Below, in pieces: positions 12,111 to 38,541 of a stretch of DNA of 42,811 bases. Source of the DNA: Deltaproteobacteria bacterium (GTDB lineage Bacteria; Myxococcota_A; UBA9160; UBA4427). A program made the position numbers and the translations under genes. The stretch is taken from NCBI GenBank assembly GCA_031400655.1, contig JANNQH010000073.1, positions 1 through 42,811 of the forward strand. The letters run 5' to 3'. The notes under the pieces are model-generated. The model had not been told where the DNA came from, searched no databases, and worked only from the letters and a program-made list of their open reading frames with translations. Every line of letters starts with the position of its first letter. Position 1 is the stretch's first letter.

Positions 12111-12611
12111 TTGAAGGCCCTCCGCCAATACGACGCCGGCGTGGTCTTGAAGATCCCGCTCCGGGATCAAGACGACGAGATCATCGACCTCGACGGAACC
12201 GAGACGGCCTGGTTCCTGCTCGAGGCGCCGTCCGGTCACCGCAAGCGCTTCGCCGCGACCGTCGACGAGACGACCGAGACGATCGAGTACACGACCGAGA
12301 CGCTCACCTTCGACGAGTGGGGAACCTGGCGCCTGCAGGCCGAGGTCATCGGAACCGGCTACCACGTCCGGACCGCCGTCCTCCTGCTCGAGGTGCAATC
12401 GAACCTCGACGCCCCCAGGCTCGTGCTCCGGCCCGATCCCGCCATGCTCGTGCTCCGCGCCGTCTTCCCGTCGCTCGACTACGTCGAGTCCGAGCTCGTC
12501 TTCGGCGTCGAAATGGCCGACGGTTCCTTCGGCGTCGTCGAGCTCGACGACGGCAAACTCCCCGTGCTCCTCTACGACGGCACGACCGCGCTCGTCGAAG
12601 TTTTCCAATGA
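12111..12611 (+). CDS. BppU-N-like Ig-fold adaptor protein carrying one fibre repeat
   Basis: D.GVVLKIPLRDQDDEIIDLDG...PSG...IEY...GTWRLQAEV pattern, followed by LVLRPDPAMLVLRAVFPSL. Confidence 0.6.
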   Translation: MKALRQYDAGVVLKIPLRDQDDEIIDLDGTETAWFLLEAPSGHRKRFAATVDETTETIEYTTETLTFDEWGTWRLQAEVIGTGYHVRTAVLLLEVQSNLDAPRLVLRPDPAMLVLRAVFPSLDYVESELVFGVEMADGSFGVVELDDGKLPVLLYDGTTALVEVFQ

Positions 12612-13258
12612 GTCAAGCGAAGCCCCTCGTCACCCGTCCGGTTCCCGGAAGCGCCGTCGACAAGATCGTTCGCGAGGGTCTGTGGACCGCGCCGCAGGAC
12701 TGGCGAGCGGGGACTCGCGTCCTCACGAACGAGACGCCGACGAGCGCGCTCGACTGGCGCTCCGCCGGCGGCGACGCGACGCCGGTCGACCTTCCGAGCG
12801 CGGCGCTCGACTGGCCGCTGTTGCGCCGGACCGGCCTCGTCGTATGGGACGTGATCGCCGACTTCGCCTCGACGCTGGCGACGCCCGAGACCTTCAACTG
12901 GGAGCTTCGCGCGGAGAACGCGGCGCTCTCGACGCCGTTCGTGATCGTCCAAACAATGCCCTCGGTCGTGTGGGGCGCCAACTGCAACCTGCTCTTCGAG
13001 GCGAAGCTCCGCGTGTGCGCGGCCGCGAACGCGGCGCCGCGATTCATCGTCGAGACGCGAACTCGGATTATCGACTTCGTGACGGGTGTCGCGGGCATGG
13101 ACGAAACGAACTACGGCTATCCGCTCGGCATCGACGCGCGCACCGCTCGCGAGCTCTCGTGGCGCTTCACCAAGGGCGGCGCAGGCGGGAAAATCATCAC
13201 GTTCCAGGGGATCGGTTGTTATCAACCGCTCGCGACAACCGGAGGCTGGGCTCAATGA
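12608..13258 (+). CDS. Hypothetical beta-rich protein (216 aa, MSQAKPLVTRP...)
   Basis: ATGA-coupled on both sides within the 9134-14339 operon. Confidence 0.7.
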   Translation: MSQAKPLVTRPVPGSAVDKIVREGLWTAPQDWRAGTRVLTNETPTSALDWRSAGGDATPVDLPSAALDWPLLRRTGLVVWDVIADFASTLATPETFNWELRAENAALSTPFVIVQTMPSVVWGANCNLLFEAKLRVCAAANAAPRFIVETRTRIIDFVTGVAGMDETNYGYPLGIDARTARELSWRFTKGGAGGKIITFQGIGCYQPLATTGGWAQ

Positions 13259-14271
13259 CGACCGTAGTTCCGACCTTCTCCGACCAAGTTTCAGGGGAAG
13301 AGCTCTGGTGTCGATTCGACTATTACCAGAACCCGACGCCCGTACTCAACAGCGCCGGCGCGCGCGCGAACCCGTGCCTCTTCTTCGGCCACACCGGCGG
13401 CGGAACGCTTCAAGATCACCGCGCGGCGCGCGACAGTGGCGACACGCTCTTCTGGCACCTCTTCCGCTGGCTCCTCCAGAATCAAGGCGCGCAGAACTCG
13501 GAGGCGCTCGTCGGCCCGGCCTTGCATTGGGACCTGTGCGGATACACGAGCGGCCAGCGCAAGCACAAGAACACAATCCGGCGAACGCGCGCGATCTATA
13601 CCCCGGAGTCGATTCTCGACTGGTTGCGGATCGTCGCGCAGATCAAGGCGCGGCACGCGATCTACGGGTTCGACCCGGACAAGTGCGGCCACCTCGGCGA
13701 GTCCTATCGGGCGATGATCTCGCAACTCGCTCTGCTCGGCTGGCCGCCGGCACTTGCCGGCGCGCAGGACTCGACCTTCCGGTTCAATATCTTCGCGCAA
13801 GGCCCGATCGACTTGCGCACGTTTTCTGGCGTCGACTTCTTTCACTACTCGCGACACGGCGAGATCACCGGCGTCCGCGCCGACGCCGGCGACTCGAACG
13901 GCGGAACCGGAGGCCTCGAGTGGGACCTCGTTCCGACTTGGATCAAGAACCGGCTTTCGATCCGTTGGTATTACGAGCAGGGTCTCGTCGGCGGACACGT
14001 TCCGACCTACATCGCCTTCCCGCTCGCCGGCGACGGCGTGCAACCGCTCGGCAACGCCTTGCACGTCGGGAGCGATCCGCACGACTCGAGCCAGGCCGCA
14101 CTGCTCGCGGCGGCGATGGCGGCCGCGGATTGCGCGCACGAGGTCGAGGTCCTGCTCGGCGCGCCCTACGCCTCCCTGATCAACGCGCAATATCCGAGCG
14201 AGCCGACCGACCCTGTTGTCCTCGCGCAGTTCAACCGCTTCGCCGACTTCATGGCGCCGTTCGGCGTCTAG
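13255..14271 (+). CDS. Alpha/beta-hydrolase-fold (esterase-like) protein, 338 aa
   Basis: FFGHTGGG (HGGG-like oxyanion motif), YGFDPDKCGHLGESYRA (HSL-like nucleophile elbow), late DPHDS histidine. Confidence 0.6.
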   Translation: MTTVVPTFSDQVSGEELWCRFDYYQNPTPVLNSAGARANPCLFFGHTGGGTLQDHRAARDSGDTLFWHLFRWLLQNQGAQNSEALVGPALHWDLCGYTSGQRKHKNTIRRTRAIYTPESILDWLRIVAQIKARHAIYGFDPDKCGHLGESYRAMISQLALLGWPPALAGAQDSTFRFNIFAQGPIDLRTFSGVDFFHYSRHGEITGVRADAGDSNGGTGGLEWDLVPTWIKNRLSIRWYYEQGLVGGHVPTYIAFPLAGDGVQPLGNALHVGSDPHDSSQAALLAAAMAAADCAHEVEVLLGAPYASLINAQYPSEPTDPVVLAQFNRFADFMAPFGV

Positions 14272-14273
14272 CT

Positions 14274-14339
14274 ATGTACGTCGAGATCACCAAACTCGAC
14301 GGGACGATCGTCCGCTGGGTGGCGGTTCCGCGTCCCTGA
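14274..14339 (+). CDS. Micro-ORF, 21 aa (MYVEITKLDGTIVRWVAVPRP)
   Basis: Fills the gap between two genes (2 nt after a TAG, 4 nt before the next ATG) with typical codon usage. Confidence 0.45.
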   Translation: MYVEITKLDGTIVRWVAVPRP

Positions 14340-14343
14340 TTCG

Positions 14344-14982
14344 ATGACCGGCCCGATCAAGGTCGAGGCCGACCTCCGCGGGTTCAACGCTTGGGCCGCG
14401 GCCGCGGTCGGGCGTCAGGTCCCGTATGCGACCAAGAAGGCGCTCGACTCGGTCGCGTTCGAGGCGCGCGACGCAGTGCGGGCCGGATTGCATCCGCCGC
14501 GCTTCGAGATCCGCTCGACCTGGGTCGCGAAGGGGATCACGGTCGTAAAGGCGCGCAAGGAGGACTATCCGAACGCGACCGCGGTCGTCGGATCTCGCGA
14601 CGAGTTCATGGTCCAGCAAGAGACCGGCGGCGAGAAGGCTCCGAAGTACACCGGCAAGCTCGCAATCCCGACGCGCGCAGGACAGAAGCTCAAGGAGGTC
14701 CGGCGCACGGCGTCGGGCAAGATCCCCAAGCGCGGCCGGCCGAAACCGTTGATCGCGGCGGGAAAGGCCTTCATCGACAAGGCGACCGACGAGGTCCGCT
14801 TGCGCCAAGAGTCCGCGAGTGGGCCCGGTCGCGCGCCGCCGATCTTCTTCCTTCGCGAGAAGGCGCACCTGAAGCCACGGTTCGAGTTCCGCGAGACCGT
14901 CGAGGGCGTCGTCGCGCGCCGCTACGGGGTGATCTTCCGAGAGCAACTCGAGCGCGCGCTCAAGCCACGCGGCGCGAAGTAG
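14344..14982 (+). CDS. Phage neck/tail-completion protein (lambda gpZ-like)
   Basis: Basic 212-aa protein, QVPYATKKALDSVAFEAR...KPRFEF...FREQLERAL. Confidence 0.6.
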   Translation: MTGPIKVEADLRGFNAWAAAAVGRQVPYATKKALDSVAFEARDAVRAGLHPPRFEIRSTWVAKGITVVKARKEDYPNATAVVGSRDEFMVQQETGGEKAPKYTGKLAIPTRAGQKLKEVRRTASGKIPKRGRPKPLIAAGKAFIDKATDEVRLRQESASGPGRAPPIFFLREKAHLKPRFEFRETVEGVVARRYGVIFREQLERALKPRGAK

Positions 14983-14994
14983 CGCCGCGCACTC

Positions 14995-15330
14995 GTGCGC
15001 CTTGCCGAATTAGAACCGCGATGGCTCCTCGACGGCGTGCGCCGCGTCGGTATTGCGTTCCTCTGCCCGTGCGCGAAGTGCAAGGGCGCCGGAGTCACCA
15101 TCGCCGTTCGATTCGCGAACCCTATCGGCGGAGGCCCCGCCACACCAAACCGCGAGGAGCTCATCGGCAATAACAACGGTCACCGATGGAGCGCGGCCGG
15201 CTCCGAGCTCGAGGATCTCACCATTACGCCCTCCATCGACTGCACGAAAGACCTGAAAGGTCTCACGCTGCCGGAAGCGCAGCAACACTGGCACGGGTTC
15301 GTCACGCTCGGCGAGTGCGGCCCCGGCTGA
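14995..15330 (+). CDS. DUF6527-like metal-binding protein
   Basis: FLCPC...LTITPSI...HWHGFVT pattern. Confidence 0.55.
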   Translation: MRLAELEPRWLLDGVRRVGIAFLCPCAKCKGAGVTIAVRFANPIGGGPATPNREELIGNNNGHRWSAAGSELEDLTITPSIDCTKDLKGLTLPEAQQHWHGFVTLGECGPG

Positions 15331-15334
15331 CCAG

Positions 15335-15388
15335 GTAATACGAAACGCTGCGCGGCCTCTTGCGCGGCCCGCAGGATGACCGTATTAC
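15335..15388 (+). promoter_or_regulatory. Candidate promoter with inverted operator half-sites
   Basis: GTAATACG (15335-15342) and CGTATTAC (15381-15388); TTGCGC-N17-TATTAC. Confidence 0.4.
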
Positions 15389-15449
15389 GTTCTACATGGG
15401 AACGCGCTTCGCGGTCCCTACCGGCCGACAGGAACAAAACGGGGGATCT

Positions 15450-15866
15450 ATGAAACCGCTTGAGTGGGATAAGTACGGACTCGCGAGCTACGAGGCGCTT
15501 ATCGAGTCGATGGAGGTCGAGACCGTGATTCAGGTCGACGACGAGAACTATTCCGGCGACACCCGCGTGTTGCTCAAGAAGGGCGACCGCTACGGGCTCC
15601 TGTTCTTCGGATGGGGTTCGTGCTCTGGCTGCGACGCCCTCCAGGAGTGCGCAACCGTCGAGGAGGCGACCAAGTTGCGCGACGAGCTCTGGGAAAGCGT
15701 CGAATGGTTCGAGGACAAGGAGGCGCTCGGGCGGCGAATCGCAACCGGCGAGTGGCAACTCAAATACTCCTGGGGTTCCGAGCTTGTCGACTTCTTGAAC
15801 CGCGTCGCCGAGTTCTGCGGAATCGAACAGCGCTTCCCGCGTGAGAACGTGGAGAAGGCACCGTGA
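15450..15866 (+). CDS. Hypothetical acidic protein with GWGSCSGCD motif
   Basis: ATG at 15450 after GGGGGA; 138 aa. Confidence 0.7.
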   Translation: MKPLEWDKYGLASYEALIESMEVETVIQVDDENYSGDTRVLLKKGDRYGLLFFGWGSCSGCDALQECATVEEATKLRDELWESVEWFEDKEALGRRIATGEWQLKYSWGSELVDFLNRVAEFCGIEQRFPRENVEKAP

Positions 15867-16204
15867 AGCCCTCCGAACTCTCGCCCCTCGTCGGCCGCAA
15901 GGTCGAGGCGATCTTCAACGGCCAGCGCACCGCGATTGTCCGCAGGGTGGCGGGCGGCGAAATGCTCTCGCTCCAGTTCGCGCACGAGCGCCGCCCTCGC
16001 CTCCTCGGAATCGAGTTCGTCGTCGGCGTGCACTGGCGCGGACGCCGGCGCACCGTTGCCGAGTATCTCGACGCACGCACGCGCGAATCCTCGAGACGAA
16101 AGGGCGAGGCCGAGAGCCAGGCGCGCCAGTTCGTCAAGAATGCCAGGCGGCGCAAGGCCGCGAGCTCGACCCCCTCAACCCAAGAGCAGGGGCCTCTCCC
16201 GTGA
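15863..16204 (+). CDS. Hypothetical basic protein
   Basis: 113 aa, GTGA-coupled at both ends. Confidence 0.6.
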   Translation: MKPSELSPLVGRKVEAIFNGQRTAIVRRVAGGEMLSLQFAHERRPRLLGIEFVVGVHWRGRRRTVAEYLDARTRESSRRKGEAESQARQFVKNARRRKAASSTPSTQEQGPLP

Positions 16205-16380
16205 AAACAAAATCCGAAAAGTCAGAAGCCCGTCAAGTTGTCCCGATCCGCTTCCGCCGGGACGAGCTCGCGCTCTTGAAGCGGGCCGCCAAGCGAAAGC
16301 AAAACACGCCCTACACGACGCTCGCCCGCGAGATCGTCGTCGCCGCGGTCACGAGGAGCGAGAAGCGCGCTCGAGCGTAG
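16201..16380 (+). CDS. Ribbon-helix-helix DNA-binding protein (CopG/BrnA-like), 59 aa
   Basis: VVPIRFRRDELALLKRAAKRKQNTPYTTLAREIV beta-alpha-alpha pattern. Confidence 0.65.
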   Translation: MKTKSEKSEARQVVPIRFRRDELALLKRAAKRKQNTPYTTLAREIVVAAVTRSEKRARA

Positions 16381-16489
16381 AGACTTGCTCGGAAGAGACG
16401 AGCGCCGTCGACCCCGGCCAGGGATCGGCGGCGCTCGAACTTTCCAACCCACACTGGCGAGGAACACCCTCGGCCACCCGAGGGGAACA

Positions 16490-16828
16490 CTACCTTCTCG
16501 TCGGAAGCGGCGCACTCAAGGCGAGCGCCGTCGCAAGTAGCGCGGTCGCCGACGGCGTGCGAAGCGCGCGCTCCTTCTCGGGCGGCGGCGGATGGAGGAT
16601 CCGGCTCGCGACGCCCTGCGCGACCTGCATCAACGGGAGGCAGCACTTCTTCGCCTTCTTGCCGGAACCGCACGCGCACGGCCCGTTGCGGGCGATCTTG
16701 ACCCGGCAATCGGGCGCAGCGTGCGAGCCTCCGCAATCCCAACGGGAAGCGCTGTCGGCCTTCACTCCGGAGCGAGTGCAACGCTCGCCCTTCCAGGTCA
16801 TCTGCTCGCACTGCGGATTGTCGCTCAC
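16490..16828 (-). CDS. SEC-C motif Zn-binding protein
   Basis: KIARNGPCACGSGKKAKKCC matches the SEC-C motif; extra N-terminal Cys/His residues. Confidence 0.7.
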   Translation of the reverse strand: MSDNPQCEQMTWKGERCTRSGVKADSASRWDCGGSHAAPDCRVKIARNGPCACGSGKKAKKCCLPLMQVAQGVASRILHPPPPEKERALRTPSATALLATALALSAPLPTRR

Positions 16829-17136
16829 GCCGAGGCCTTCGCTTTCGACTCGACGAGGATCTCCGAGGTCTTGAGGCCGAGCACGGCGCAGAGCGCCGCG
16901 AGAGATTCATCCGAGGGCGAGTGTTTTCCCTTCTCCCAGAGGTAGATCGTCGAGCCCGTGACGTTCACGCCGAGCGCACGCATGCGAGCCTCGACCTGTC
17001 CGCGCGAGAGCCGGAGCTCCTCACGCTTCGCACGGATCACGGCAGGACGGATCGGCAGGTTCGGCGGGCGACCGCCGACGTTCTTCGGAGGCGCGACCGT
17101 CTTCCGCTTCTTCGTGCTCTTGGGAGGTTTGCTCAT
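16825..17136 (-). CDS. XRE-family HTH transcriptional regulator (likely leaderless)
   Basis: IRAKREELRLSRGQVE...TIYLWEKGKHSPSDESLAALCAVLG; ATG at 17136 lies 7 nt downstream of TAGGTT. Confidence 0.85.
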   Translation of the reverse strand: MSKPPKSTKKRKTVAPPKNVGGRPPNLPIRPAVIRAKREELRLSRGQVEARMRALGVNVTGSTIYLWEKGKHSPSDESLAALCAVLGLKTSEILVESKAKASA

Positions 17137-17302
17137 GCGCGCGAACCTATGCAACCGCGAGGCGCAGTTCGAGGGGTTGCTCGTTTCAACGCGCGGGCGG
17201 AGGCAACGCGCGCAGCGCTCACGCGGCGCAGGCGACGAGACGCGCGCGGCGCGGCGCGCGCGCAGGCCCTCCCAGGAGCCCTGCCGAGGGGGTGGGGGTG
17301 CT

Positions 17303-17410
17303 GGGTCCTTCCCCGCCCCCGGGCCGGTCGGGTGACGCGGACCCACGTCTTTCTACCCCCAGGGGGGTGGGAACCGGGTTCCCACCTCGTTAGCTTCTAG
17401 ACGGGAACCT
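17303..17410 (+). other. Candidate cos packaging site (cosQ/cosN/cosB-like)
   Basis: GGGTCCT (identical to lambda cosQ) at 17303-17309; GGGTGACGCGGACCC dyad at 17330-17344; perfect inverted repeat GGTGGGAACC-G-GGTTCCCACC at 17366-17386; third GGGAACC at 17403; upstream of terS. Confidence 0.55.
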
Positions 17411-17445
17411 CCTCCGCGCCGCTCTCCGAGCACCTGCCTCCCGCC

Positions 17446-17700
17446 ATGACCGACAAGCCCGAACGCTCCGAAGAAGTCCGCCGCCGCTACTCGCTCACGC
17501 TCGAGGTCGAGGCCGAGGATCTCGACACGCTGCGCGCTTGCGCGGCGCGCGCCGCGTCGCGCCTCGAGCGCGGCGCCGAGGTCTGGGACGAGGCCGGCGA
17601 CACCCACGCGGGCCGCTTGAAAGTGACGAGCGCGAGCGAGGCCGCCGCCAAGCGCGCGAACGAGAAGCTCCCGCTCGACCGCACCCGCCGCGGGGAGTAG
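17446..17700 (+). CDS. Hypothetical protein
   Basis: 84-aa ORF with typical codon usage preceding terS. Confidence 0.6.
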   Translation: MTDKPERSEEVRRRYSLTLEVEAEDLDTLRACAARAASRLERGAEVWDEAGDTHAGRLKVTSASEAAAKRANEKLPLDRTRRGE

Positions 17701-17709
17701 AGGTCGCGC

Positions 17710-20416: not shown

Positions 20417-20604
20417 CCGACCTCACCGCCCTCGAGGACGCACTGAAGACCGGCGCTCGCCGCGTGAAGTTCGCCGACCGCGAGGTCGAGTTCCGCTCGC
20501 TCACGGAGCTCCGCGGGATCATCGAAGGCCTGCGCCGCCAACTCGGCCTCTCCGACGGCGGGCTGAAAGTTTCCTACGTCAAGACGCGCAAGGACCTCGA
20601 CTAG
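20401..20604 (+). CDS. gpW-like head-tail joining protein
   Basis: MAYTLADLTALEDALKTGARRVKFADREVEFRSLTEL; lies between terL and portal. Confidence 0.85.
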   Translation: MAYTLADLTALEDALKTGARRVKFADREVEFRSLTELRGIIEGLRRQLGLSDGGLKVSYVKTRKDLD

Positions 20605-22098: not shown

Positions 22099-22113
22099 GG
22101 GGGTTTCCTACTA

Positions 22114-22150
22114 TTGCACGCCGCCCCTTGGGACGGTCATCCTCGCGGGC
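22114..22150 (+). promoter_or_regulatory. Leaderless-type promoter of the protease-capsid gene
   Basis: TTGCAC-N18-CATCCT-N7-GTG. Confidence 0.55.
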
Positions 22151-24223
22151 GTGCTGAAGACCCGCGATCTCAAGGTTCGCCCTCGGGAGTGGACCGGGCG
22201 GATCCGCTCCGAGAGCTTCGACGAGTCGAAGGGGACGTTCGACGTCGTCGTCACGACCGGCGAGGCGATCCTTCGAAACGACTACATGCTCTGGGACGGG
22301 CCGTACTACGAGGAGCTCGGCCTGAAAGAGGGCGAGGTCCGCCTCGCGCGCTTGAACTCTGGGCGCCTCAACCTGCTCGACAATCACGGCTACGCGAACG
22401 GCGCCGATTGGGGCCCGTCGAAGTATCAGACCGGAAACGTTGTCGGCGTCGCGCTCGCAAACCGCGCTCGCGTCGAGAAGATCGCCGGCGCCGACGCGCT
22501 TCTCTCGACGTTCCAGGTTTCGCGCCGCGACGAGCTCGCCGGACTTCGAACCGACCTGAAGGACGGCGTCGTCGCGCAGTGCTCGCCCGGCTACCGCGTC
22601 TATCTCTACGAGATGACGATAGCGCCGCTAGACGGCACGCCGCCGACGTTCCGCGCGGTCGATTGGGAGCCGACCGAAGTCTCGCTCACCGCAGTTCCGG
22701 CGGAGGAGGGCGCGCACGTTCGCACCTCCGCGCAATCCGAAAACCCGTGCCGCGTGATAGATCGGCGGCCAGACACCCAACAGCGCACCATGAAACGAAA
22801 AGTCAAGAACGCGGCCGGAGTCGAAGTCGAAGTCGAAGTTCCCGAGACGGAAGGCGACGGCACGCGCACCGCGGTCGAGACGCCGCCGGCACCGGTCGCC
22901 GCTCCCGCGGCTCCGAGCGACGCCGAACGCGCGGCCGCGAGCGCGCAGGGTGCGACGAGCGAGCGCGCGCGCGCGGAAGAGATCCGCACGCTCACGCGCA
23001 CCGCAAAACTCCCCGCCGAGTTCGGCGACAACCTCGTGAAGACCGGCACGCCGATCGAGAAGGCGCGCGCCGCGATCGTCGAGGAGTGGGCGAAGCAAGG
23101 AGCACCGGCCACGCCGGCGACGCCTTCCGACACGACGCGCGCGGAAGTGCGCGAAGTCGGGAACGAACTCGACGCGATGCAAGTCGCGCTGATCCATCGC
23201 GGCGCTCCGCACCTAGTCCCGGTCGACAAGCTCACGCCGCAGGCGCGCTCGTTCGTGCAGTTCTCCTTGCTCGACCTGGCTCGTCACCTGCTCGAGAAGC
23301 GCGGCGAGCGCACGCGCGGGATGGATCGCTCGAAGATCGTCGAGCGCTCGCTCATGGCGGCGAGCGAGTTCCCCGAGCTCCTCGCGAACACGGCGAGCAA
23401 GTCGCTCCGCGATCAATACGAGATCATGCCGAACACCTGGCAAGCGTGGTGCCGTCGCGGCACGCTGCCGGACTTCAAGATCATGAGTCGTGTCGGGCTC
23501 TCGGGCGCGCCGACGCTCGAGGAGGTTCCGGAGACCGGCGCGATCAAGCGCGGCGCGCTCTCGGAAATGGCCGAGAAGTACCGCCTGAAGACCTACGGGA
23601 AGATCGTCCCGATCTCGCGTCAGGCGATCATCAACGACGATCTTTCCGGGTTCACGCGAATCCCGGCCGCGTTCGCCGTCTCGGCGTCGACGCTGATCGA
23701 GGACCTCGTCTATTCAATCCTCACGACCAACGCGGCGATGGCCGACACGGTCGCGCTCTTCCACGCGACGCACAAGAACCTGAGCTCGGGCGCCGGCTCG
23801 GCGCTCGCACTCGCGGGCCTCGGCGCGGCGCGCACGCTGCTTCGCAATCAAACCGGCCAGGACGGGAAGTACCTGAACCTGAACGCGGCCTACATCATCG
23901 TCCCGGCGGCGCTCGAGACGACGGCCGAACAACTGACGCTGCCCTTCGGCGCGGTCGTCGCGACGAACATCAACCCCTGGGCCGGTCGCCTGAAACACAT
24001 CACGCAACCGCGCCTCGACGTGGCCTCGGCCATCATCTGGTTCGCGGTCATCGACCCGGCCTTCGGCGACACGATCGAAGTGGGCTTCCTCGAAGGACAG
24101 AGCGGGCCGCGAATCGAATCGCGCACCGGCTTCGACGTGGAAGGCCTCGAGATCAAGTGCGCGCTCGACGTCGGCGCGAAGGCGATCGACTGGCGCGGAA
24201 TGGTCAAGAGCGCCGGCGCCTAG
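22151..24223 (+). CDS. Fused prohead protease / major capsid protein
   Basis: Protease motifs LLDNH...SPGYRV...WEPTEVSLTAVPA; linker; capsid part DFK...TYGKIVPISRQAIINDDL...AIDWRGMVK. Confidence 0.93.
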   Translation: MLKTRDLKVRPREWTGRIRSESFDESKGTFDVVVTTGEAILRNDYMLWDGPYYEELGLKEGEVRLARLNSGRLNLLDNHGYANGADWGPSKYQTGNVVGVALANRARVEKIAGADALLSTFQVSRRDELAGLRTDLKDGVVAQCSPGYRVYLYEMTIAPLDGTPPTFRAVDWEPTEVSLTAVPAEEGAHVRTSAQSENPCRVIDRRPDTQQRTMKRKVKNAAGVEVEVEVPETEGDGTRTAVETPPAPVAAPAAPSDAERAAASAQGATSERARAEEIRTLTRTAKLPAEFGDNLVKTGTPIEKARAAIVEEWAKQGAPATPATPSDTTRAEVREVGNELDAMQVALIHRGAPHLVPVDKLTPQARSFVQFSLLDLARHLLEKRGERTRGMDRSKIVERSLMAASEFPELLANTASKSLRDQYEIMPNTWQAWCRRGTLPDFKIMSRVGLSGAPTLEEVPETGAIKRGALSEMAEKYRLKTYGKIVPISRQAIINDDLSGFTRIPAAFAVSASTLIEDLVYSILTTNAAMADTVALFHATHKNLSSGAGSALALAGLGAARTLLRNQTGQDGKYLNLNAAYIIVPAALETTAEQLTLPFGAVVATNINPWAGRLKHITQPRLDVASAIIWFAVIDPAFGDTIEVGFLEGQSGPRIESRTGFDVEGLEIKCALDVGAKAIDWRGMVKSAGA

Positions 24224-24663: not shown

Positions 24664-24671
24664 ACCCGGGC

Positions 24672-25803: not shown

Positions 25804-25805
25804 CC

Positions 25806-27263: not shown

Positions 27264-27304
27264 CGCCGCTCACGCGCGGACTCTGACCAGCAAGGACTTC
27301 GAAC

Positions 27305-27670
27305 ATGCCGAGCAAGAACCTCCGGGGAGGCCTCCTCTCCCTGAAAATGAATGGCGAGATCCTCGACGCGCTCGGGAACTTCGACTACTGCCTCGCGACT
27401 CCAAAGCGCGAGGCCGTCGTCGGAGCGGATCGCGTGCACGGGTTCTCCGAGACGCCGCAGGTCCCCTACATCGAGGGCGAGATCACCGATCGCAAGGACC
27501 TCGATCTCCGCGCGCTCTTCAACGCGACGAGCGTCACCGTGACGCTCGAGCTTCGAAGCGGGAAGACCGTCGTGCTCCGCGAAGGCTGGTACGCCGGCGA
27601 GGCGAAGGTCTCGACCGAGAAGGGAACGGTCTCGGTCCGCTTCGAGGGGATCTCCTGCGAGGAGCTCTAG
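27305..27670 (+). CDS. Tail tube protein (Mu gpM-like)
   Basis: REAVVGADRVHGFSETP.VPYIEG...VRFEG. Confidence 0.9.
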   Translation: MPSKNLRGGLLSLKMNGEILDALGNFDYCLATPKREAVVGADRVHGFSETPQVPYIEGEITDRKDLDLRALFNATSVTVTLELRSGKTVVLREGWYAGEAKVSTEKGTVSVRFEGISCEEL

Positions 27671-27673
27671 GCC

Positions 27674-27979
27674 TTGGCGCAGCAAGTCCCCAAGCGAAAG
27701 CACCGGGTCGTCAAGCTCGACTCGCCGATCGAGGTCGGCTCCGAGTCGATTGATACGGTCTACGTCATGCGGCCGCGCGCGGGCGACATGCGCCTCTATC
27801 CGGCGCCCGGGACGGCGAAGACCGTCGGCGATTATCACCCCTTCTGGGCGAAGCTCTGCGGTCTCACCGTGACCGAGTTCGAGCTCCTCGAGGCCGAGGA
27901 CTACCAACGGTGCATGGAGGCCGCCGAGGAACTCGTCTCGGAGTTCCCTCGGACTGGCTTGAGTGCCTCGGGTGGATAG
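27674..27979 (+). CDS. Tail assembly chaperone (Mu gp41 / P2 gpE-like)
   Basis: KLDSPI...RPRAGDM...LCGL...L.AEDY; between tube and tape measure. Confidence 0.8.
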   Translation: MAQQVPKRKHRVVKLDSPIEVGSESIDTVYVMRPRAGDMRLYPAPGTAKTVGDYHPFWAKLCGLTVTEFELLEAEDYQRCMEAAEELVSEFPRTGLSASGG

Positions 27980-28110
27980 CCCGGGTCCTGCACTTCGGCC
28001 GCTCTGATCTCTACAAGCTCGACGCGGACGAGCTCGCGCGCTGGCTCGAAATCGCGCGCACCCTGCTCGAGCGCGAATCCGCCGCGGCGCGCGGCCCAAC
28101 CGAAGAGTAG
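27947..28110 (+). CDS. -1 frameshift extension of the tail assembly chaperone (gpE'/GT-like)
   Basis: -1 frame reads PSDWLECLGWIARVLHFGRSDLYKLDADELARW (GpE'-like HF/W...EL..W); start coordinate is approximate. Confidence 0.65.
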
Positions 28111-28131
28111 GATCCGACCGAGGAGGCTCCC

Positions 28132-29727
28132 GTGATCAAGTTCCCGCTTTCCGTCGTCATTGCCGCGGTCGACAAGTGGACCGCCCCGCTCGCGAAAATG
28201 CAGGCGAAGGTGAACAAGACCTTCGCGCCCCTGCGCGAGCTCGGAACGAAACTCCACGCGCTCGGCGAGGCCTCGGGCCTGCGCAAGCTCGGGAGCGCAT
28301 TCGCCGAGGTCGGCTCGGCAATCGGGAACGTGATCCGCACGATCGCGCGCTTCGCGCTCGTCGTCGGAGGTGCCATCGCGGGCGCGATCGCCGCGGTCTA
28401 CTCGCTCGTCCTCGGCACCGCGCGCGCCGGCGACCAAGCGCTCGAGACTGCGCGGAAGATCGGGATAGGAGTCGAGGCCTACCAAGAGCTCGCGTATGCC
28501 GCGAAGCTCTCGGGCGTCGACCAGGCGACGCTCACGAGCACGCTCTCGAAGCTCTCGCGGAATATGGGCCTGGTGGCGCTCGGCAATCGCGCGGCCGCGC
28601 AAGGGTTCCGCCGGCTCGGCGTCGACGTGCTCGACTCGAACAAGAAGCTCCGCCCGGTCGAGGACGTGCTCGCCGACGTGGCCGACGCTTTGAACAAGCT
28701 CGACGATCCGCTGAAGCGCAACGCAATCGGCGCGATGATCTTCGGCAAGTCGACGGCCGAGCTCAACACGCTCCTGAAGGACGGCTCGAAGGGCCTGCGC
28801 GACGCGGCGAAAGAAGCGCGCCGGCTCGGCGTCGTGCTCTCGCAAGACGCGGCCGAGGCCTCCGACGAGTTCATGGACGCGCAGGAACGGGTGAAGTCCG
28901 CGCTCGCCGGCGTGCGCAATACGATCGGCGTCGCGTTGATCCCCGCCCTCACCAAGCTCGCCGAGAAGTTGACCGCGTTCCTCACCGCGCACCGCGAAGA
29001 GATCAAGTCCTGGGCGGAGCGCTTCGCGAAGGGACTCCCGGAGCGGCTCGACAAGCTCGGCCGGCAGTTCTCGGAGATCGTCGAGGACTTGCGTCCGCTC
29101 GTGCGCGCGATCGGCAGGCTCATCGAACGCTTCGGCGCCGTGAAGGTCGCGATCGCGGCGCTCTCGGCGGTTCTCGTGATCTCGCTCGTCCCGGCCGTCT
29201 TCTCGACGATCGCGGCGCTCGCGACGCTCTCGACGGCGCTCGTCTCTACTCCTGCAGGGTGGGTCGTGCTCGCCTTTGCGGCGTGCGCGCTCGCCGGCGC
29301 GGCGTTCGCCTACGTCGTCATCAAGATCGGGCAACATTGGGAAGAGCTCTGGATCGCGATCCGCCTCTACCTCGCGGTCGGGAAAGCCCTGCTCGTCAAC
29401 TGGGTGAACGACCTCGCGGACTCGATCGTCTCGCCGTTCCGAACCGCCTTCGCGTGGCTCGAGGACAAGTTCCGCGGCCTCGAGTCGATGCTGCCCGACT
29501 GGCTTCGCGATTCGCTCGGGCTCTCGGTCAAGGTCGCGAGCTCTGGAGCCCTCGGTCCGCCGGCCGCGGGCGCGATCGCCGCGAGCTCGGGCGGAAAGCC
29601 CGGCGGACAATCGAGCCTGAAGGTCGAGTTCGTCAACGCCCCGAAGGGGACGCGCGTCTCCGAGGCCTCGAGCGGAGGTCCGGACATCGACCTCTCGCTC
29701 GGCTACTCGCTCGCGGGAGGAAACTAG
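28132..29727 (+). CDS. Tape measure protein
   Basis: 531 aa, Ala/Leu-rich helical with hydrophobic segments; position; GGAGG RBS. Confidence 0.9.
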   Translation: MIKFPLSVVIAAVDKWTAPLAKMQAKVNKTFAPLRELGTKLHALGEASGLRKLGSAFAEVGSAIGNVIRTIARFALVVGGAIAGAIAAVYSLVLGTARAGDQALETARKIGIGVEAYQELAYAAKLSGVDQATLTSTLSKLSRNMGLVALGNRAAAQGFRRLGVDVLDSNKKLRPVEDVLADVADALNKLDDPLKRNAIGAMIFGKSTAELNTLLKDGSKGLRDAAKEARRLGVVLSQDAAEASDEFMDAQERVKSALAGVRNTIGVALIPALTKLAEKLTAFLTAHREEIKSWAERFAKGLPERLDKLGRQFSEIVEDLRPLVRAIGRLIERFGAVKVAIAALSAVLVISLVPAVFSTIAALATLSTALVSTPAGWVVLAFAACALAGAAFAYVVIKIGQHWEELWIAIRLYLAVGKALLVNWVNDLADSIVSPFRTAFAWLEDKFRGLESMLPDWLRDSLGLSVKVASSGALGPPAAGAIAASSGGKPGGQSSLKVEFVNAPKGTRVSEASSGGPDIDLSLGYSLAGGN

Positions 29728-29731
29728 GGCC

Positions 29732-30922
29732 GTGGCCGACTGGCGCGCACGCCTGCGGCCGGCGAGCTTCCGCGGCGTGCCGTTCTTCGTCGAGGCCGCG
29801 GAACGCGACGGCGGCCGTCTGACGGTCTTGCACGAGTTCCCGGGCCGGACGAACCCGGTCGTCGAAGACCTCGGCTCCGCGCCGCGCGCGCACTCAGTCG
29901 ACGCCTACCTCGTCGGCGACGACTTCATGGAAGCGCGCGACCGCCTGCTCGCCGCGCTCGAGGAGGCCGGGCCCGGGATCCTCGTCCATCCCTACTTCGG
30001 AACCCTCGAGGTCACGGTCTCAGGCTCGGTTCGCCTGCGCCACTCCACGCGCGAGGGCCGGATCGTTCGCCTCGGGATCCTCTTCGTCCAAACCGACTCG
30101 ACGCTCACCGTCGCCGAAGCGCGGAACGAACCTGCAGAAGCCGAGGAGGCCGCGGCCGCGCAGGTAATCGCGTCGAGCGCCGCGTTCGAGGCCGCGGTCG
30201 ACGTCGACGGCGTTCCCGATTGGACGCTCGAAAGTCTGACCGACGAGATCAATCGGGCCGTGGACGAGTTCCGCCGGTTCGACTTCTCCTTCGGTTTGCT
30301 CGACAAGGTCGCGGCGTTCACGGACCTTGTTGACGCGCTCGGGTCTGGACTCGTCGAGCTCGTGCGACTCGGGGACTTCCCGACTCGCGTGCACGACGTG
30401 TTCGCCGCGCTCGAGGACGCCGTCGCCTCGAAGGTCGACGCGCTCGACGCCTATCTCACCTTCGGCGCTTTCCGAGGAACCGGGATCGGCTACCTCTCGG
30501 AGACGGGCAAGATCGCCGACGCGAACGCCGCGGCCGTCGAGCACCTCTTCCGCGAGCTCGCGATCGCGGAGGCCGTTCGCGTCGCGGCGTCGATCGAGTG
30601 GGACTCGCTCGAGGACGCGCTCGTCGCGCGCGGGAAGATTCTCGCCGAGATCAACTCGCTCTCGGAGACCGCCGGCGACCTCTCCTATTACGCGCTCGCG
30701 AGCCTGCGCGCAAAACTCTACGCCGCGGTCCCGCCGGAAGATCAAGCGCTCCCGCGACTTGCGACCGTGACGCTTCAAGCGACGAGCTCGACCGTGCTCC
30801 TCGCGTGGCGCTTGTTCCAGAACCTTGCGCGCGAGGAAGAGATCGTTACTCGCAACCGTCCGCCCTGGCCGGGCTTCCTCGTGGCGAGTTCGCCGCTCGA
30901 GGTCCTCGTCGATCCCGCGTAG
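29732..30922 (+). CDS. DNA circularisation protein (Mu gpN-like)
   Basis: WRARLRPASFRGVPF...HEFP...EDLG...GILVHPYFG. Confidence 0.92.
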   Translation: MADWRARLRPASFRGVPFFVEAAERDGGRLTVLHEFPGRTNPVVEDLGSAPRAHSVDAYLVGDDFMEARDRLLAALEEAGPGILVHPYFGTLEVTVSGSVRLRHSTREGRIVRLGILFVQTDSTLTVAEARNEPAEAEEAAAAQVIASSAAFEAAVDVDGVPDWTLESLTDEINRAVDEFRRFDFSFGLLDKVAAFTDLVDALGSGLVELVRLGDFPTRVHDVFAALEDAVASKVDALDAYLTFGAFRGTGIGYLSETGKIADANAAAVEHLFRELAIAEAVRVAASIEWDSLEDALVARGKILAEINSLSETAGDLSYYALASLRAKLYAAVPPEDQALPRLATVTLQATSSTVLLAWRLFQNLAREEEIVTRNRPPWPGFLVASSPLEVLVDPA

Positions 30923-32008
30923 ATGGCGCTCGAAGAGGTCAAGCTCACCGTCGAGGGCCGGGCCTACACGGGCTGGAAGTCGATTGTCCTCACGCGCTCG
31001 ATTGAAGCGCTCTGCGGCTCGTTCCGGCTCGAGGTCGTCGACGACGTGCGCAACCTCGGCAAGAAGTCGCGGTTCCCGGTCCCCGAGGGCGCGGCGTGTC
31101 AGGTCAACGTCGGGCGCGACCTGTACCTCTCCGGTTTCGTCGACTCGATCGAGGCCGCCTTCGGACCGCGCGAGCACCGCGTAACCGTCGAGGGACGCGA
31201 CAAGGCCGCGGACTTCGTCGACTGCTCGCCCGTCGACCTGCCGCTTGAGTTCTACGATCTCTCGCTCTTCGAGCTCGCCGTCGAGCTCGCGACGCCGTTC
31301 GGTCTCGGCGTCGTGTCGACGGAAGAGGACGAGGGAGAAAACTTCGAGCGCTTCTCCCTTCAAGTCGGCGAGAGCGCGCACGAGGCGCTCGAGCGCGCCT
31401 GCCGCCTGCGCGGGTTTCTCCAGCAATCGAACGCGACCGGCGCGCTCTTCTTGACGCGCGCGGGCCTCGAGCGCTCCTCGCGCGCGATCGTCCAAGGCGA
31501 GGACCTGCTCGTCTCCGCGACGTTGCGCCTCGACCAATCGGGCCGCTTCCATCGCTACGTCGCGCGCGGCCAGGCGCCCGGCTCCGACACGTCAAGCGGC
31601 GCCGGTTGCGCCGAGGCGATCGCGGAGGCGATCGACCCGATCCCGCGTAAGACGCGAACGCTCGCGATCGTTCCCGAAGGCAACGTCGACGACGAGGGAG
31701 CGAAGCTCCGCGTCACCTGGGAGGCGAACGTCCGCGCCGCGCGCGCGCAGCAACTCACCGTGAAGGTCCGCGGGTGGCGCGAGCTCGAGGGCGGCTTCTT
31801 GTGGAAACCGAACCGGCTCGTCTCGGTCGAGATCCCGACTCTTCGCGTGAGCGGGGACTGGCTCATCGCCGGCGTTCAACTCGCGCGCAGCGTCGACGGC
31901 GGCACGACGAGCGAGCTCGGCCTCGTGCGCCCCGACGCTTACTTGCCCGAACCGCCGCGGCCCGACCTCGAGGTCGAGTTCGGCGCGGACTTGGAGGAAG
32001 CCGAGTGA
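30923..32008 (+). CDS. Baseplate hub protein (Mu gp44/gpP-like)
   Basis: YTGWKSI...RSIE...GRDKAADFVDCS...GWR...LWKPN. Confidence 0.92.
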   Translation: MALEEVKLTVEGRAYTGWKSIVLTRSIEALCGSFRLEVVDDVRNLGKKSRFPVPEGAACQVNVGRDLYLSGFVDSIEAAFGPREHRVTVEGRDKAADFVDCSPVDLPLEFYDLSLFELAVELATPFGLGVVSTEEDEGENFERFSLQVGESAHEALERACRLRGFLQQSNATGALFLTRAGLERSSRAIVQGEDLLVSATLRLDQSGRFHRYVARGQAPGSDTSSGAGCAEAIAEAIDPIPRKTRTLAIVPEGNVDDEGAKLRVTWEANVRAARAQQLTVKVRGWRELEGGFLWKPNRLVSVEIPTLRVSGDWLIAGVQLARSVDGGTTSELGLVRPDAYLPEPPRPDLEVEFGADLEEAE

Positions 32009-32559
32009 AGCTCTCCGATCTCGAGCGCTTCATCCGCCCGCTGCGCCGCAAGGTCTCGGGCCTCTTCGTGCGCGGCGTCTGGCGCCTCGGCTACGGCGGC
32101 GAGGGGATGCGCCGCGGCCAGGTCACCGGACTCGCCGGCGAAGTGCGCGACGGCGTCGAGGCGCCAGACCAGTACGGGTTCACGAGCGAACCGCACCCGG
32201 GAGCCGAGCAGTTCCTCGCCCGGATCGGCGGCAACCCAGACCACGGGATTGTCCTCGTCGTCGCCGACCGCCGCTATCGGATCAAGACCCTCGCCGTTGG
32301 GGAGGTCGCGATGTACGACGACCAGGGGAGCTCGGTCGTCTTCAAGCGCGGAGGGTTGATCGAGATCGTCTCCGCCGGCGGGCTCGTCAAGGTCACCGGC
32401 GACCTCGAGGTCTCGGGCAACGTCAAGGCTTCCGGCGACGTCGAGGACGCACTCGGCACCCTGGCCGACCTGCGCACCAAGTACAACGCGCACACGCACG
32501 TCGAGAACGGCACCGGCGGCGGCGTCACCAATCCGCCCGCGGGACCGTTCCAGGCCTGA
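32005..32559 (+). CDS. Baseplate spike (Mu gp45/gpV-like)
   Basis: YGFTS.P...DRRYR...GEVAMYDDQG...YNAHTH (HxH iron-binding tip). Confidence 0.92.
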   Translation: MKLSDLERFIRPLRRKVSGLFVRGVWRLGYGGEGMRRGQVTGLAGEVRDGVEAPDQYGFTSEPHPGAEQFLARIGGNPDHGIVLVVADRRYRIKTLAVGEVAMYDDQGSSVVFKRGGLIEIVSAGGLVKVTGDLEVSGNVKASGDVEDALGTLADLRTKYNAHTHVENGTGGGVTNPPAGPFQA

Positions 32560-32583
32560 GCCTCGGAGCGTAGGCTCGTCCCC
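32548..32583 (+). promoter_or_regulatory. Leaderless-type promoter of gp46
   Basis: TTCCAG-N17-TAGGCT-N7-GTG. Confidence 0.5.
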
Positions 32584-33054
32584 GTGGACTTGAAGCTCTC
32601 CTGGGGCCCGGCCGGATCGGACCTCGTCGTCGAGAAGGGCGACCTCGCCGCGGACCGCGGGCTCGTGACGGCCGTCCTCCTCTCCCTGTACTCCGACGCG
32701 CTCGCGCCCGAGGAGAGCGCGCTCCCCCTGCTCGAGCAGGATCGCCGCGGTTATTGGGCCGAGGCCGCGGGCGATCCCTACGGCTCGCTCCTGTGGCTTC
32801 TCATGCGCGAGAAGGCGACGGCCGAGAGTGCCGCGCGCGCGCAGGACTACGCCCGCGCGGCGCTCTCCTGGCTCGAACGGCAGGGGATCGCGAAGACGGT
32901 CGAAGCGCAAGCCGAGTACCGCTCGGGCGGCGTGCTTTTCCTCGACGTCAAGATCACGCGCGGCACCGCGCGCCGTTGGGCGAGCTTGTGGGACGCGGTC
33001 CTCGAGCTCCGCCTCTCGCTCACCGGGTCGCTCTTGCAAGTGACCCTGACCTGA
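32584..33054 (+). CDS. Baseplate wedge protein (Mu gp46-like)
   Basis: LVTAVLLSL...RGYWA...GSLLWLL.REK...ALSWL. Confidence 0.92.
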   Translation: MDLKLSWGPAGSDLVVEKGDLAADRGLVTAVLLSLYSDALAPEESALPLLEQDRRGYWAEAAGDPYGSLLWLLMREKATAESAARAQDYARAALSWLERQGIAKTVEAQAEYRSGGVLFLDVKITRGTARRWASLWDAVLELRLSLTGSLLQVTLT

Positions 33055-33069
33055 CGCAGGCTCTCGCGG
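33034..33069 (+). promoter_or_regulatory. Leaderless-type promoter of gp47
   Basis: TTGCAA-N17-CAGGCT-N7-GTG. Confidence 0.55.
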
Positions 33070-34125
33070 GTGACGTTCCAGCGCCCGAGCCTCGCCGAGC
33101 TCCGCGCGCGGGTGAGCTCCGATCTCGCCTCGCGCCTCGGTCTTTCGGGCCTGCTCCCGCGCTCGATTCTGCTCGCGCTCGCGAACGCCGACGCCGCGGC
33201 CGTGCACCTGCTCCACGGCCACCTCGAGTACCTCGCGCGCCAGCAATTCCCGCAGACCTCAGACCGTGAGGGGATCGTCAACTGGGCCGACCTGCGCGGG
33301 CTCTCGCGCAAGGCCGCGACCTTCGCGAGCGGGACCGCGGACTTCGTCGGCCAGGTCTCGGCGACGATCCCTGACGCGACGCAACTCACGCGCGACGACG
33401 GGACCAAGTTCAAGACGATCGGCGCGGCCGCGATCGGCGCCGGCGGGAGCGTGTCGGTTCCGCTTCGCGCACTCGACGCCGGCGAGATCGGCAACTCCGA
33501 CGCCGGGATCGAGCTTCGCCTCTCGAGCGCGCTCGCCGGCGTGCAATCGACCGCGGTCGTCGAAGCGCCGGGCATCGCCGGCGGCGTCGACGCGGAGAGC
33601 GACGAGAGCTTGCGCGATCGCACGCTCGCCGCGTGGCGCACGCCGGTCCGCGGCGGAGCGCAAGCCGACTACGTCACCTGGGCGCTCGAGGTCGCGGGCG
33701 TGACGCGCGCATGGTGCACGCCGAACGTGGTCGGCGTCGGAACGGTAGGGCTTGGGTTCGTCGTCGATGACGCGGCCTATGGTCCGATCCCCAACGCGGG
33801 CGACATAGCGCTCGTGCTCGCGTACTTGCAAGAGCGCCGGCCAGTCACCGCGCAACTCTTCGTGTACGCGCCGATTCCGCTCCCGCTCGATCTCACGATG
33901 ACGCTCGTTCCAAATACCGCGACCGTGCAGGCCGCGGTCGAGGCGAGCATCCGCGACCTTCTGCGCCGCGTGGCCGAGCCGGGCGGGACGTTGCTCCTCT
34001 CGAACATTCAGGAGGCGATCTCACTCGCGACCGGCGAGACCGATCACACGCTCACGTCGCCAGTCGCGGACGTTGTCGCCGGCGCGGGAGAGCTCCTCGT
34101 TCCGGGGAGCTTCACCTACCTGTAG
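33070..34125 (+). CDS. Baseplate J-like protein (Mu gp47)
   Basis: FQRPSL...GGVDAESDESLR.R...GGAQADY..WALEVAGVTRAW. Confidence 0.95.
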   Translation: MTFQRPSLAELRARVSSDLASRLGLSGLLPRSILLALANADAAAVHLLHGHLEYLARQQFPQTSDREGIVNWADLRGLSRKAATFASGTADFVGQVSATIPDATQLTRDDGTKFKTIGAAAIGAGGSVSVPLRALDAGEIGNSDAGIELRLSSALAGVQSTAVVEAPGIAGGVDAESDESLRDRTLAAWRTPVRGGAQADYVTWALEVAGVTRAWCTPNVVGVGTVGLGFVVDDAAYGPIPNAGDIALVLAYLQERRPVTAQLFVYAPIPLPLDLTMTLVPNTATVQAAVEASIRDLLRRVAEPGGTLLLSNIQEAISLATGETDHTLTSPVADVVAGAGELLVPGSFTYL

Positions 34126-34135
34126 GGTTTCCCTC

Positions 34136-34864
34136 GTGGCGGAACCCGATCCCTCAAGCGGCACGACCGCGCAAGAGTTCGACTACGCGGCCCAGCTCGC
34201 CGCGCACTTGCCGCCTGGCCTCGCGTGGCCTCACGCGCCGGGCTCGAACTTCGAGAAGCTCCTGCTCGGTCTCGCCGGCGAGAAGGCTCGCGTGCACCTG
34301 CGCGCGCTCGACCTCGCGCGCGAGATCGACCCGCGCACCTCGACCGAACTCCTCGACGAGTGGGAGCGCTTCCTCGCCCTTCCGGACGAGTGCACGGGAC
34401 TGCAGACGGATATCACGAGCCGGCGCGCGGCCGTGCTCGCTGTGCTCCTCGAGACCGGCGGCCAGACGCCCGCGTATCTCATCGCGCTCGCGGCTTACTA
34501 CGGGTTCGAGATCACGATCGAGGAGCACCTCCCCTTCCTCGCGGGGAACTCAGTCGCCGGCGACGACCTCGAGAACCCGGGCGACCCGTTCCTCGCCGGC
34601 CTCAACACGGCGGGCGAAGCGCTCGGACTTTGGACGGCCTGGAGCTTCTATTTCGACGTGATCTCCCCGGACGTGACGGTCCACTATTTCACCGCCGGTT
34701 CGTCGGCCGGCGAGGCCCTGCGGACCTGGGGAAACGAACTCCTCGAGTGCATCATCCGGCGCGCGAAACCGGCGCACACGGAGGCCCGCTTCGTTTACCT
34801 CTTGACCTTGAACCCCGACCCGGCGACCGTCACCCTTACGGCGCCACAAGTCACGCTGGTCTAA
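34136..34864 (+). CDS. Baseplate wedge protein (Mu gp48/YmfQ, DUF2313) with an appended fibre repeat
   Basis: LPPGLAW...ELLDEWER..LPD.C...LECIIRRAKPAHT, then extra C-terminal LLTLNPDPATVTLTAPQVTLV; GTG at 34136 lies 7 nt after TAGGGT. Confidence 0.9.
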   Translation: MAEPDPSSGTTAQEFDYAAQLAAHLPPGLAWPHAPGSNFEKLLLGLAGEKARVHLRALDLAREIDPRTSTELLDEWERFLALPDECTGLQTDITSRRAAVLAVLLETGGQTPAYLIALAAYYGFEITIEEHLPFLAGNSVAGDDLENPGDPFLAGLNTAGEALGLWTAWSFYFDVISPDVTVHYFTAGSSAGEALRTWGNELLECIIRRAKPAHTEARFVYLLTLNPDPATVTLTAPQVTLV

Positions 34865-38318: not shown

Positions 38319-38331
38319 AAAGGAGACACTC

Positions 38332-38505: not shown

Positions 38506-38541
38506 CGTGCTTCTTCCCTGGCTTCGAACTCGAACCTCTCC

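Follow-up and report, generated by a model that had tools for sequence, protein, structure and literature searches.

The stretch of DNA analyzed here (the window) is the whole of a 42,811-nt contig (JANNQH010000073.1, our C73) from the assembly of a Deltaproteobacteria bacterium (5.1 Mb in 969 contigs). Its first and last 141 nt (1–141 and 42671–42811) are identical, forming a terminal direct repeat, and because the window is also an entire contig, it is a complete, closed circular phage genome of ~42.67 kb that was binned with the bacterial assembly. The phage is a contractile-tailed, Mu-like myophage with a genome G+C content of 68%, and its plus strand encodes terminase subunits, a portal, a protease–capsid fusion, a tail terminator, two baseplate hub proteins, one wedge subunit, Baseplate_J, the wedge protein gp48 and a tail fiber (Table 1). 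Upstream of the terminase lies an operon that includes genes for proteins of 147, 776 and 166 aa. Our subject is a short unit that is repeated in tandem along the 776-aa protein and that recurs as the last 21 residues of gp48, where it may hold a dimer of the 147-aa protein at the baseplate.

The 776-aa frame is a real coding frame, as its G+C content of 0.89 at third codon positions (GC3) indicates. It matched no Pfam or PHROG family, though two homologues (P0006 and P0007) share its build of N-terminal domain, tandem units and conserved C-terminal end. The units follow the consensus LxLxLTPxPAxxxxxAPxxxLA and appear at the DNA level as tandem repeats of 66–69 nt. A profile hidden Markov model (HMM) made from 15 of them returns 21 matches on the protein itself, with a period of 22 aa and with 17 of the matches above 10 bits (11–30 bits). 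A first-pass annotation of this DNA, made from the sequence alone, had spoken of scaffold units; that label fits less well than that of the “rope” of a fiber, on which the tandem units would be docking sites and the conserved C-terminal end possibly an anchor to the virion. An AlphaFold2 model of the protein (3-row alignment) reached a mean predicted local distance difference test (pLDDT) of 34, too poor for a fold search.

The DNA at the end of gp48 encodes the 21 residues that the first-pass annotation had quoted as matching the units, followed directly by a stop, and the match is borne out. With the unit profile the gp48 tail (34799–34858) scores 22.2 bits, which falls among the scores of the array's own units. 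When the profile was run over all six frames, a scan that the annotation had proposed for the proteome, the tail stood well above background: it is the top match outside the array both in the window (580 open reading frame pieces, 78,427 aa; runner-up 6.4 bits) and in the whole genome (77,054 pieces, 9,319,593 aa; runner-up 12.0 bits). Scored as an isolated peptide it reaches 27.0 bits, a value attained by 0 of 5000 composition-matched shuffles (best 17.3), and it keeps 17.6 bits when the most similar unit is withheld from the profile and 14.6 bits when the three PDPA units are withheld as well. The closest unit is identical to the tail at 12 of 21 residues. In their DNA, tail and units share 18–36 of 63 nt, with third codon positions mostly different, and this low identity (~50%) implies that the likeness has been maintained at the protein level; a recent DNA duplication as the origin of the tail is ruled out by the same figure. 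Judged by sequence, these results establish the tail as a genuine copy of the rope unit.

The copy also belongs to this phage in particular. The window's unit profile gives 3.8–7.6 bits in context on the tails of three related gp48 proteins (P0014, P0015 and P0089), and the window's own tail gives −0.9 and 0.2 bits against the arrays of P0006 and P0007. With both foreign tails and foreign arrays scoring low, the window's tail tracks the array of its own phage.

That the tail is an addition follows from the gp48 family. The PF10076 match spans positions 2–149 of the 150 in the profile, and both it and the phrog_203 match stop at Y221 of the 242-residue protein, whose closest solved relative is gp48 of Mu (PDB 9ki1, E 1e-13) and whose gene lies between those of Baseplate_J and the fiber, the order expected for PF10076 wedge proteins. 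Among the 120 homologues listed (281 were found), 83 end no more than 6 residues past the KPAHT..F.Y motif, and since these lack the extension, the tail is an addition to gp48, much as the annotation had supposed from the observation, equally upheld, that gp48 proteins usually end just after KPAHT...Y. Longer C-terminal extensions of several types occur in the other 37, and the window's tail type in 4 of the 120 (the window protein, P0014, P0015 and P0089). A back-translated DNA pattern of KPAHT plus tail had no match in viral, genome and metagenome contig collections; the unit-type tail was absent from the gp48 relatives in IMG/VR (4, 1 and 5 loci with window gp48, P0015 and P0089 as queries); and gp48 itself had no match in 40 related genomes at E ≤ 1e-5.

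A partner for the tail is proposed by structure prediction, a check that the annotation had likewise put forward. We modeled two copies of the 147-aa protein with gp48 residues 205–242 in three runs alongside three controls, using a 122-row alignment for the 147-aa protein (drawn from 121 of its 150 best relatives after 24 tandem and 5 odd-length proteins were dropped) and the four tail-bearing proteins as the gp48 alignment. The interface score ipSAE (interaction prediction score from aligned errors) was 0.92, 0.90 and 0.92 in the three runs against 0.05 for the best control, the partner pLDDT was 70–71, and contacts agreed to at least 96% between runs. In calibration, 58 of 80 solved complexes attained the mark applied here, as did 2 of 110 mismatched pairs; these rates carry over only roughly to the present case, in which the alignments were custom-built and one chain was entered twice. 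The modeled interface is formed by gp48 residues 220–242, that is, by the tail; the lowest-error contacts listed pair copy 1 with residues 225–232 and copy 2 with residues 233–236, with much the same N- and C-terminal strands engaged in each copy. The modeled contacts match one strand–PxPA–strand unit per dimer. The model suggests that a 147-aa dimer clamps the gp48 tail. A dimeric working unit would also fit the finding that, of the 150 best-scoring relatives of the 147-aa protein (P0138–P0274), 24 are tandem duplications of ~280–320 aa.

From this combination of a secure unit copy and a predicted partner, we propose that the 776-aa protein is the rope of a chain-like fiber, an extended polypeptide on which each 22-aa unit (strand, PxPA, strand, AP) would bind one 147-aa dimer by adding strands to the sheet of the dimer. 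gp48 would have acquired one such unit as its C-terminal tail, so that every one of the six wedges would bear a single 147-aa dimer in addition to the conventionally docked main tail fiber, and the 166-aa protein probably holds a degenerate copy. We infer the binding along the rope, its stoichiometry and its position on the virion from the modeled tail, and we hold the explanation as a whole to be likely, with a good deal of room for error. The annotation had pictured the repeat as a portable, strand-donating ligand that ties the operon, at 9–15 kb, to the baseplate; of this picture, the gp48 copy is secure, its character as an addition is clear and the dimer is supported by the model, and the copy claimed in the 166-aa protein is weak.

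If this model holds, one 21-residue peptide would suffice to place a fiber dimer on a chosen virion protein, and the same peptide would serve ~20 times on the rope and once per baseplate wedge. Rope-and-dimer fibers, to date solved for a few podophages and for the Felixounavirus neck, would then extend to the baseplate of a Mu-like myophage and to a very large uncharacterized protein family. The model would moreover explain why the gp48 C-terminus is a hot spot for extension (the 37 listed homologues noted above, with their several types), and the peptide and its dimer would make a small, naturally occurring tag and clamp with which phage particles could be decorated.

Table 1. Positions in the window of the genes, domains and peptide units considered in the text.
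Feature	Position	Strand	Basis or remark
147-aa protein (phrog_644), proposed rope-binding fiber subunit, dimer	9134..9577	+	phrog_644 E 3e-16
776-aa “rope” protein	9746..12076	+	N-terminal domain, tandem docking units (putative), conserved C-terminal end
N-terminal beta-rich domain of 776-aa protein, ~205–208 residues	9746..10369	+	Residues 1–208; family fused to many different repeat arrays
Tandem unit array, 17–21 units of ~22 aa	10385..11821	+	Residues 214–692; HMM matches
Conserved C-terminal end RLARxxxLDRWPPxTGPG, candidate virion anchor	11939..12073	+	Invariant columns in alignment with P0006 and P0007
166-aa protein with one probable degenerate unit	12111..12611	+	No family found
Weak PDPA-type unit copy (probable)	12420..12476	+	4.2 bits with full profile; 11.4 bits with three PDPA units alone
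216-aa gene	12608–13258	+	Codon-position G+C; start overlaps stop of 166-aa gene
335-aa gene	~13264–14271	+	Codon-position G+C
DUF6441/phrog_1924 “minor tail protein”	14344–14982	+	Pfam and PHROG scans
Baseplate J wedge protein	33070..34125	+	PF04865 E 3e-64
Baseplate wedge protein gp48 (BW3/Tri2, PF10076), 242 aa	34136..34864	+	PF10076 E 1.7e-27; phrog_203 E 1.4e-59
gp48 C-terminal 21-aa tail, single rope unit	34799..34861	+	22.2 bits, best outside match in genome
Main tail fiber	34874..36079	+	phrog_4492 E 9e-62; N-terminal ~80 aa match many tail-fiber N-termini

The segment of the 166-aa protein that the annotation had offered as a further unit copy presents a less clear case. It is present where claimed and is PDPA-like, yet its score in context lies at genome background and falls to 0.6 bits when the PDPA units are withheld from the profile; the higher value in Table 1 is obtained against the last three PDPA-type units only. 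In the shuffle test it scores 9.8 bits, which 0 of 5000 shuffles reach, though narrowly (best 9.5). A motif defined post hoc, after the data had been seen ([LIVMF]x[LIVMF]xP[DE]PAxxx[LIVMF]), has 10 matches across the genome's six frames, 4 of them on the window contig, where it marks the gp48 tail, two units of the rope and the segment discussed here. Homologues of the 166-aa protein do better in two cases out of three, retaining a more canonical unit (P0134, 8.5 bits; P0135, 11.2 bits), and the third has lost half of it. We consider the segment probably a degenerate copy of the unit, a judgment made from sequence comparison. The label “BppU-like” that had been attached to the protein finds no support: it has no Pfam match at E ≤ 0.01, four members of its family have none at E ≤ 1, and no PHROG matched.

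Several observations weigh against the proposed rope-and-dimer fiber and keep our confidence in it limited. Binding by the dimer is a modeled property of the gp48 tail and not a measured one, and the AlphaFold2 model of the 147-aa protein by itself (6-row alignment) has a mean pLDDT of 43, which together with that of the 776-aa model makes both unusable. The 147-aa family has no detectable sequence likeness to the rope-bound fiber protein gp80 of phage GP4 or to the P2 gpH adaptor: hhalign with the 122-row profile gave probabilities of 0.07 against GP4 gp80 and 0.10 against the P2 gpH N-terminus, a profile search of the PDB matched Bxb1 gp31 alone and not 8JOU (GP4 gp80), and six members of the family had no Pfam match at E ≤ 10. 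A feature link in the ESM Atlas between the 147-aa protein and GP4 fiber I gp80 (PF23140; 0.85) is a lead only. Gene neighborhoods elsewhere raise a further difficulty. In Streptomyces phage Wakanda, MW202601 and two IMG/VR loci (L008 and L011), genes for the N-terminal domain of the 776-aa protein (the N-domain) lie between the major capsid gene and the head–tail adaptor region, standing solo between capsid and adaptor genes in Wakanda and MW202601. In these four contexts the pair of N-domain and phrog_644 genes adjoins capsid genes, so the rope may decorate the head or neck instead of the baseplate, and most contexts of the pair give it that look. Moreover, gp48 is found in 0 of 5 phage records with the pair, which marks the pair as an independent module.

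Sharing of units between an array and another protein of the same phage is also infrequent. We scanned 18 other N-domain array proteins, 5 against whole contigs and 13 against partial ones, with 10 of the 28 IMG/VR loci, mostly without a clear array, outside the scan; counting the window, units are shared in 2 of the 19 phages. In the other 17 the best outside match is at most 7.6 bits. The second case is the phage record behind L027 (G003), in which a 156-aa tail-region protein (22577–23044) scores 24.6, 22.8 and 18.6 bits with the phage's own array and, as read from its sequence, holds 3–4 units (PxTGELTIEGxQ) from the array of a double N-domain protein (27473–30484).

Other accounts of the gp48 tail have to be set against the same evidence. 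With its G+C content of 68% and its abundance of A/P/L/V/T peptides, the genome could in principle generate such a likeness through chance, through composition or through a recent DNA copy of no function, and the segment in the 166-aa protein, taken by itself, is no better than such a background. For the gp48 tail, we regard this account as very improbable and in effect refuted: the tail stands at 22.2 bits when the maximum elsewhere in the genome is 12.0, no shuffle of 5000 reaches its score, nucleotide identity of ~50% excludes a recent copy, and the tail type is kept in 4 of the 120 listed gp48 homologues. A more substantial alternative, though still an unlikely one, is that the tail is a docking rope for the main tail fiber, as proposed for gpI and gpH of P2, so that its likeness to the units would reflect a shared strand–PxP–strand design. 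The position speaks for this, since the rope region of P2 gpI, which the available part of a preprint proposes to lie, from R153, between two gpH chains (bioRxiv 10.64898/2026.09.14.750843), sits after the KPA motif exactly where the window's tail does, and the fiber gene lies directly 3′ of gp48. However, the PF10076 core is intact in the window's gp48, including the region of Mu's internal fiber docking loop, the N-terminus of the main fiber belongs to widespread families, and most of the listed relatives (83 of 120) lack any tail. A rope for the main fiber also leaves aside that the tail specifically matches the array of its own phage and that the modeled 147-aa dimer passes so far above its controls (0.92 vs. 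0.05).

We give somewhat less credence still to the idea that units associate with one another across chains in a shared beta structure, in which case the gp48 tail would pair with rope units and tether the rope to the wedge. The tail resembles its own array far more than related tails do, a fit for which pairing of like with like would account, and two G003 proteins share units. On the other side, no test supports such pairing; the monomer model of the 776-aa protein is uninformative (pLDDT 34); the tail is fully occupied by the 147-aa dimer in the predicted complex; and in published rope fibers, as far as the available text of the reports goes, the rope binds dimers and not itself (PMC13730344, PMC12609058). 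We therefore retain the rope-and-dimer explanation, with the gp48 tail as a single predicted docking site, as the one that best accommodates the data.

The families involved reach well beyond this phage. The 147-aa family comprises 7577 clusters at E ≤ 1e-3 and 2362 at E ≤ 1e-10, with homologues among the virion genes of the satellite MiniFlayer (Streptomyces; OQ357865, 5237–5611, E 1e-8) and of F116-like Pseudomonas podophages (NC_006552, F116, 33550–33957). In one relative (P0254, 884 aa), a domain of the 147-aa type forms the C-terminus, and the rest is beta-helix-like by eye only. The N-domain family numbers 8 proteins, 28 IMG/VR loci (L007–L034) and 10 metagenome loci (L052–L061); an N-domain alignment search of the genome contig collection returned no match. 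Some proteins consist of the domain by itself (~225–250 aa); in others it is joined to unrelated tandem arrays of many kinds, most of which repeat every 18–24 aa, and examples from these (L007–L034, L052–L061, P0006–P0012) are LTPSLFTDGDTF.., RVSQVVxE.. and GAGTAQLTLSGSAAG... Eight open reading frames of ~145 aa beside N-domain genes fall into phrog_644 (five), phrog_240 “head protein” (two) and no matched family (one).

Within the gp48 homologues (P0013–P0132), the C-terminus is a hot spot with recurrent types, including ..AADRLxFVANYxIPEDL, WD-rich tails and DxAPDPxxWFDFTLP; such extensions may be docking peptides for different partners. One homologue (P0015) carries an N-terminal extension as well (residues 1–95), in which ~3 more units seem to precede a proline run; these are weak by the window's profile (2.1–7.7 bits), and the extension starts with the RVSQ motif seen in the arrays of L027, L028 and L034. 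In the window's gp48, residues 99–129 (~34430–34522), over GGQTPAYLIALAAYYGF, match TAL effector repeats (PDB 3ugm, E 5.7e-6) weakly and more than once; we attribute this to a chance likeness between helical repeats. Downstream of the operon's 166-aa gene, an open reading frame at 12682–14271 was considered as a single gene and ruled out by codon-position G+C, which resolves two genes there (216 and 335 aa); neither matched a PHROG family.

These distributions invite a broader and more speculative proposal, which we think has a modest chance of being right and rather more of being wrong. Members of phrog_644 would be general rope-binding dimers, N-domain array proteins would be their co-evolving ropes, and the gain of a single unit or a single dimer domain could be enough to join any structural protein to the virion, be it gp48 (at either end), a small adaptor or an enzyme like P0254, the beta-helix fusion. 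If there were such a widespread docking code, the unit would serve as a naturally occurring tag of 21 residues by which cargo could be fastened to phage particles.

Among known systems, the closest in architecture are the fibers of the podophages GP4, VP1 and A1002, for which the available text describes dimers of 140–171-aa proteins set in tandem on a “rope” through an augmented beta-sheet, with 11 sites on A1002 gp39 (for gp40/gp41 dimers) and 5 dimers in GP4, and with an Ig-like domain of A1002 gp39 that caps one end of the rope (PMC13730344). The window matches this design, to the extent that it is reported there, in the size of its small fiber protein (147 aa against 140–171 aa; GP4 gp80, PDB 8JOU), in an extended polypeptide with tandem sites (here 17–21 units with presumptive docking) and in a globular domain at one end of the rope (Ig-like in A1002, the N-domain here); dimers with sheet augmentation are a prediction here, made by the model of the gp48 tail. 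It differs in the sequence of the 147-aa family, already contrasted with gp80, in having a contractile tail where those phages are podophages, in having ~20 units against the 5–11 reported for GP4 and A1002, and in bearing a single unit on a baseplate wedge protein as well. We also observe that GP4 (L063) encodes, beside gp80, a Gly-rich 325-aa protein (37948–38925) with a period of ~20 aa that resembles the P0010 array (BLASTP E 3e-4, with biased composition) and has no sequence match in the PDB; this protein may be the rope of GP4.

Closer in morphology are the felixounaviruses Bas63 and Sf14, myophages in which, according to the available part of the report, whisker dimers, two per subunit, sit on the N-terminus of the neck collar protein, which extends like a rope (PMC12609058). 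A rope domain holds dimers there, as is proposed for the window, and its genes lie beside head genes, the sort of location that paired phrog_644 and N-domain genes occupy in L008 and L011; unlike in the window, the rope, as described in that text, is N-terminal on the collar, whereas here it is C-terminal to another domain and has a copy on gp48. For P2, a preprint proposes, from a low-resolution map and predictions, that from R153 onward the C-terminal part of gpI forms a rope gripped by two gpH adaptor domains (bioRxiv 10.64898/2026.09.14.750843). In our alignment this stretch of gpI follows the KPA motif, in the position that the tail has in the window. The wedge family, the C-terminal site and the arrangement of one peptide between two adaptor domains are thus alike; yet the partner proposed for P2 is the main fiber gpH, through its N-terminal domain, and the part of the preprint available shows no rope repeats elsewhere, while the window's tail reproduces a unit that a different protein carries in an array of ~20, and the model pairs the tail with the free-standing 147-aa protein. 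Mu gp48 (BW3), the closest solved relative, likewise docks a fiber oligomer on one wedge peptide, its fiber trimer being held, in the available account, by an internal loop (residues 133–155; PMC11915804); that loop is internal where the window's site is terminal, and Mu gp48 ends 5 residues after KPAHxxxxFVY, without a tail.

For the 147-aa protein, the sole solved protein with significant sequence likeness is the “tail wing arm” gp31 of Bxb1 (PDB 9d93; E 2.7e-5 and 5e-6 with the family profile), although gp31 has 106 aa and the match covers the C-terminal part only. Bxb1 gp31 is reported, in the part of the text available, to be a dispensable part of the tail appendage that depends on gp30 (PMC12646305), and the available portions of the literature on Bxb1, Claus and A-1(L) give no detail of how gp31-like proteins are held. 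Donor-strand complementation in chaperone–usher pili offers an analogy of mechanism only; general Pfam and PHROG scans of the examined genes found no pilin, chaperone or usher families. Taken together, the resemblance of the window's system to rope-and-dimer fibers is one of architecture and not of sequence, and while that mechanism is already published in kind, the gp48-tail form is a variant of it.

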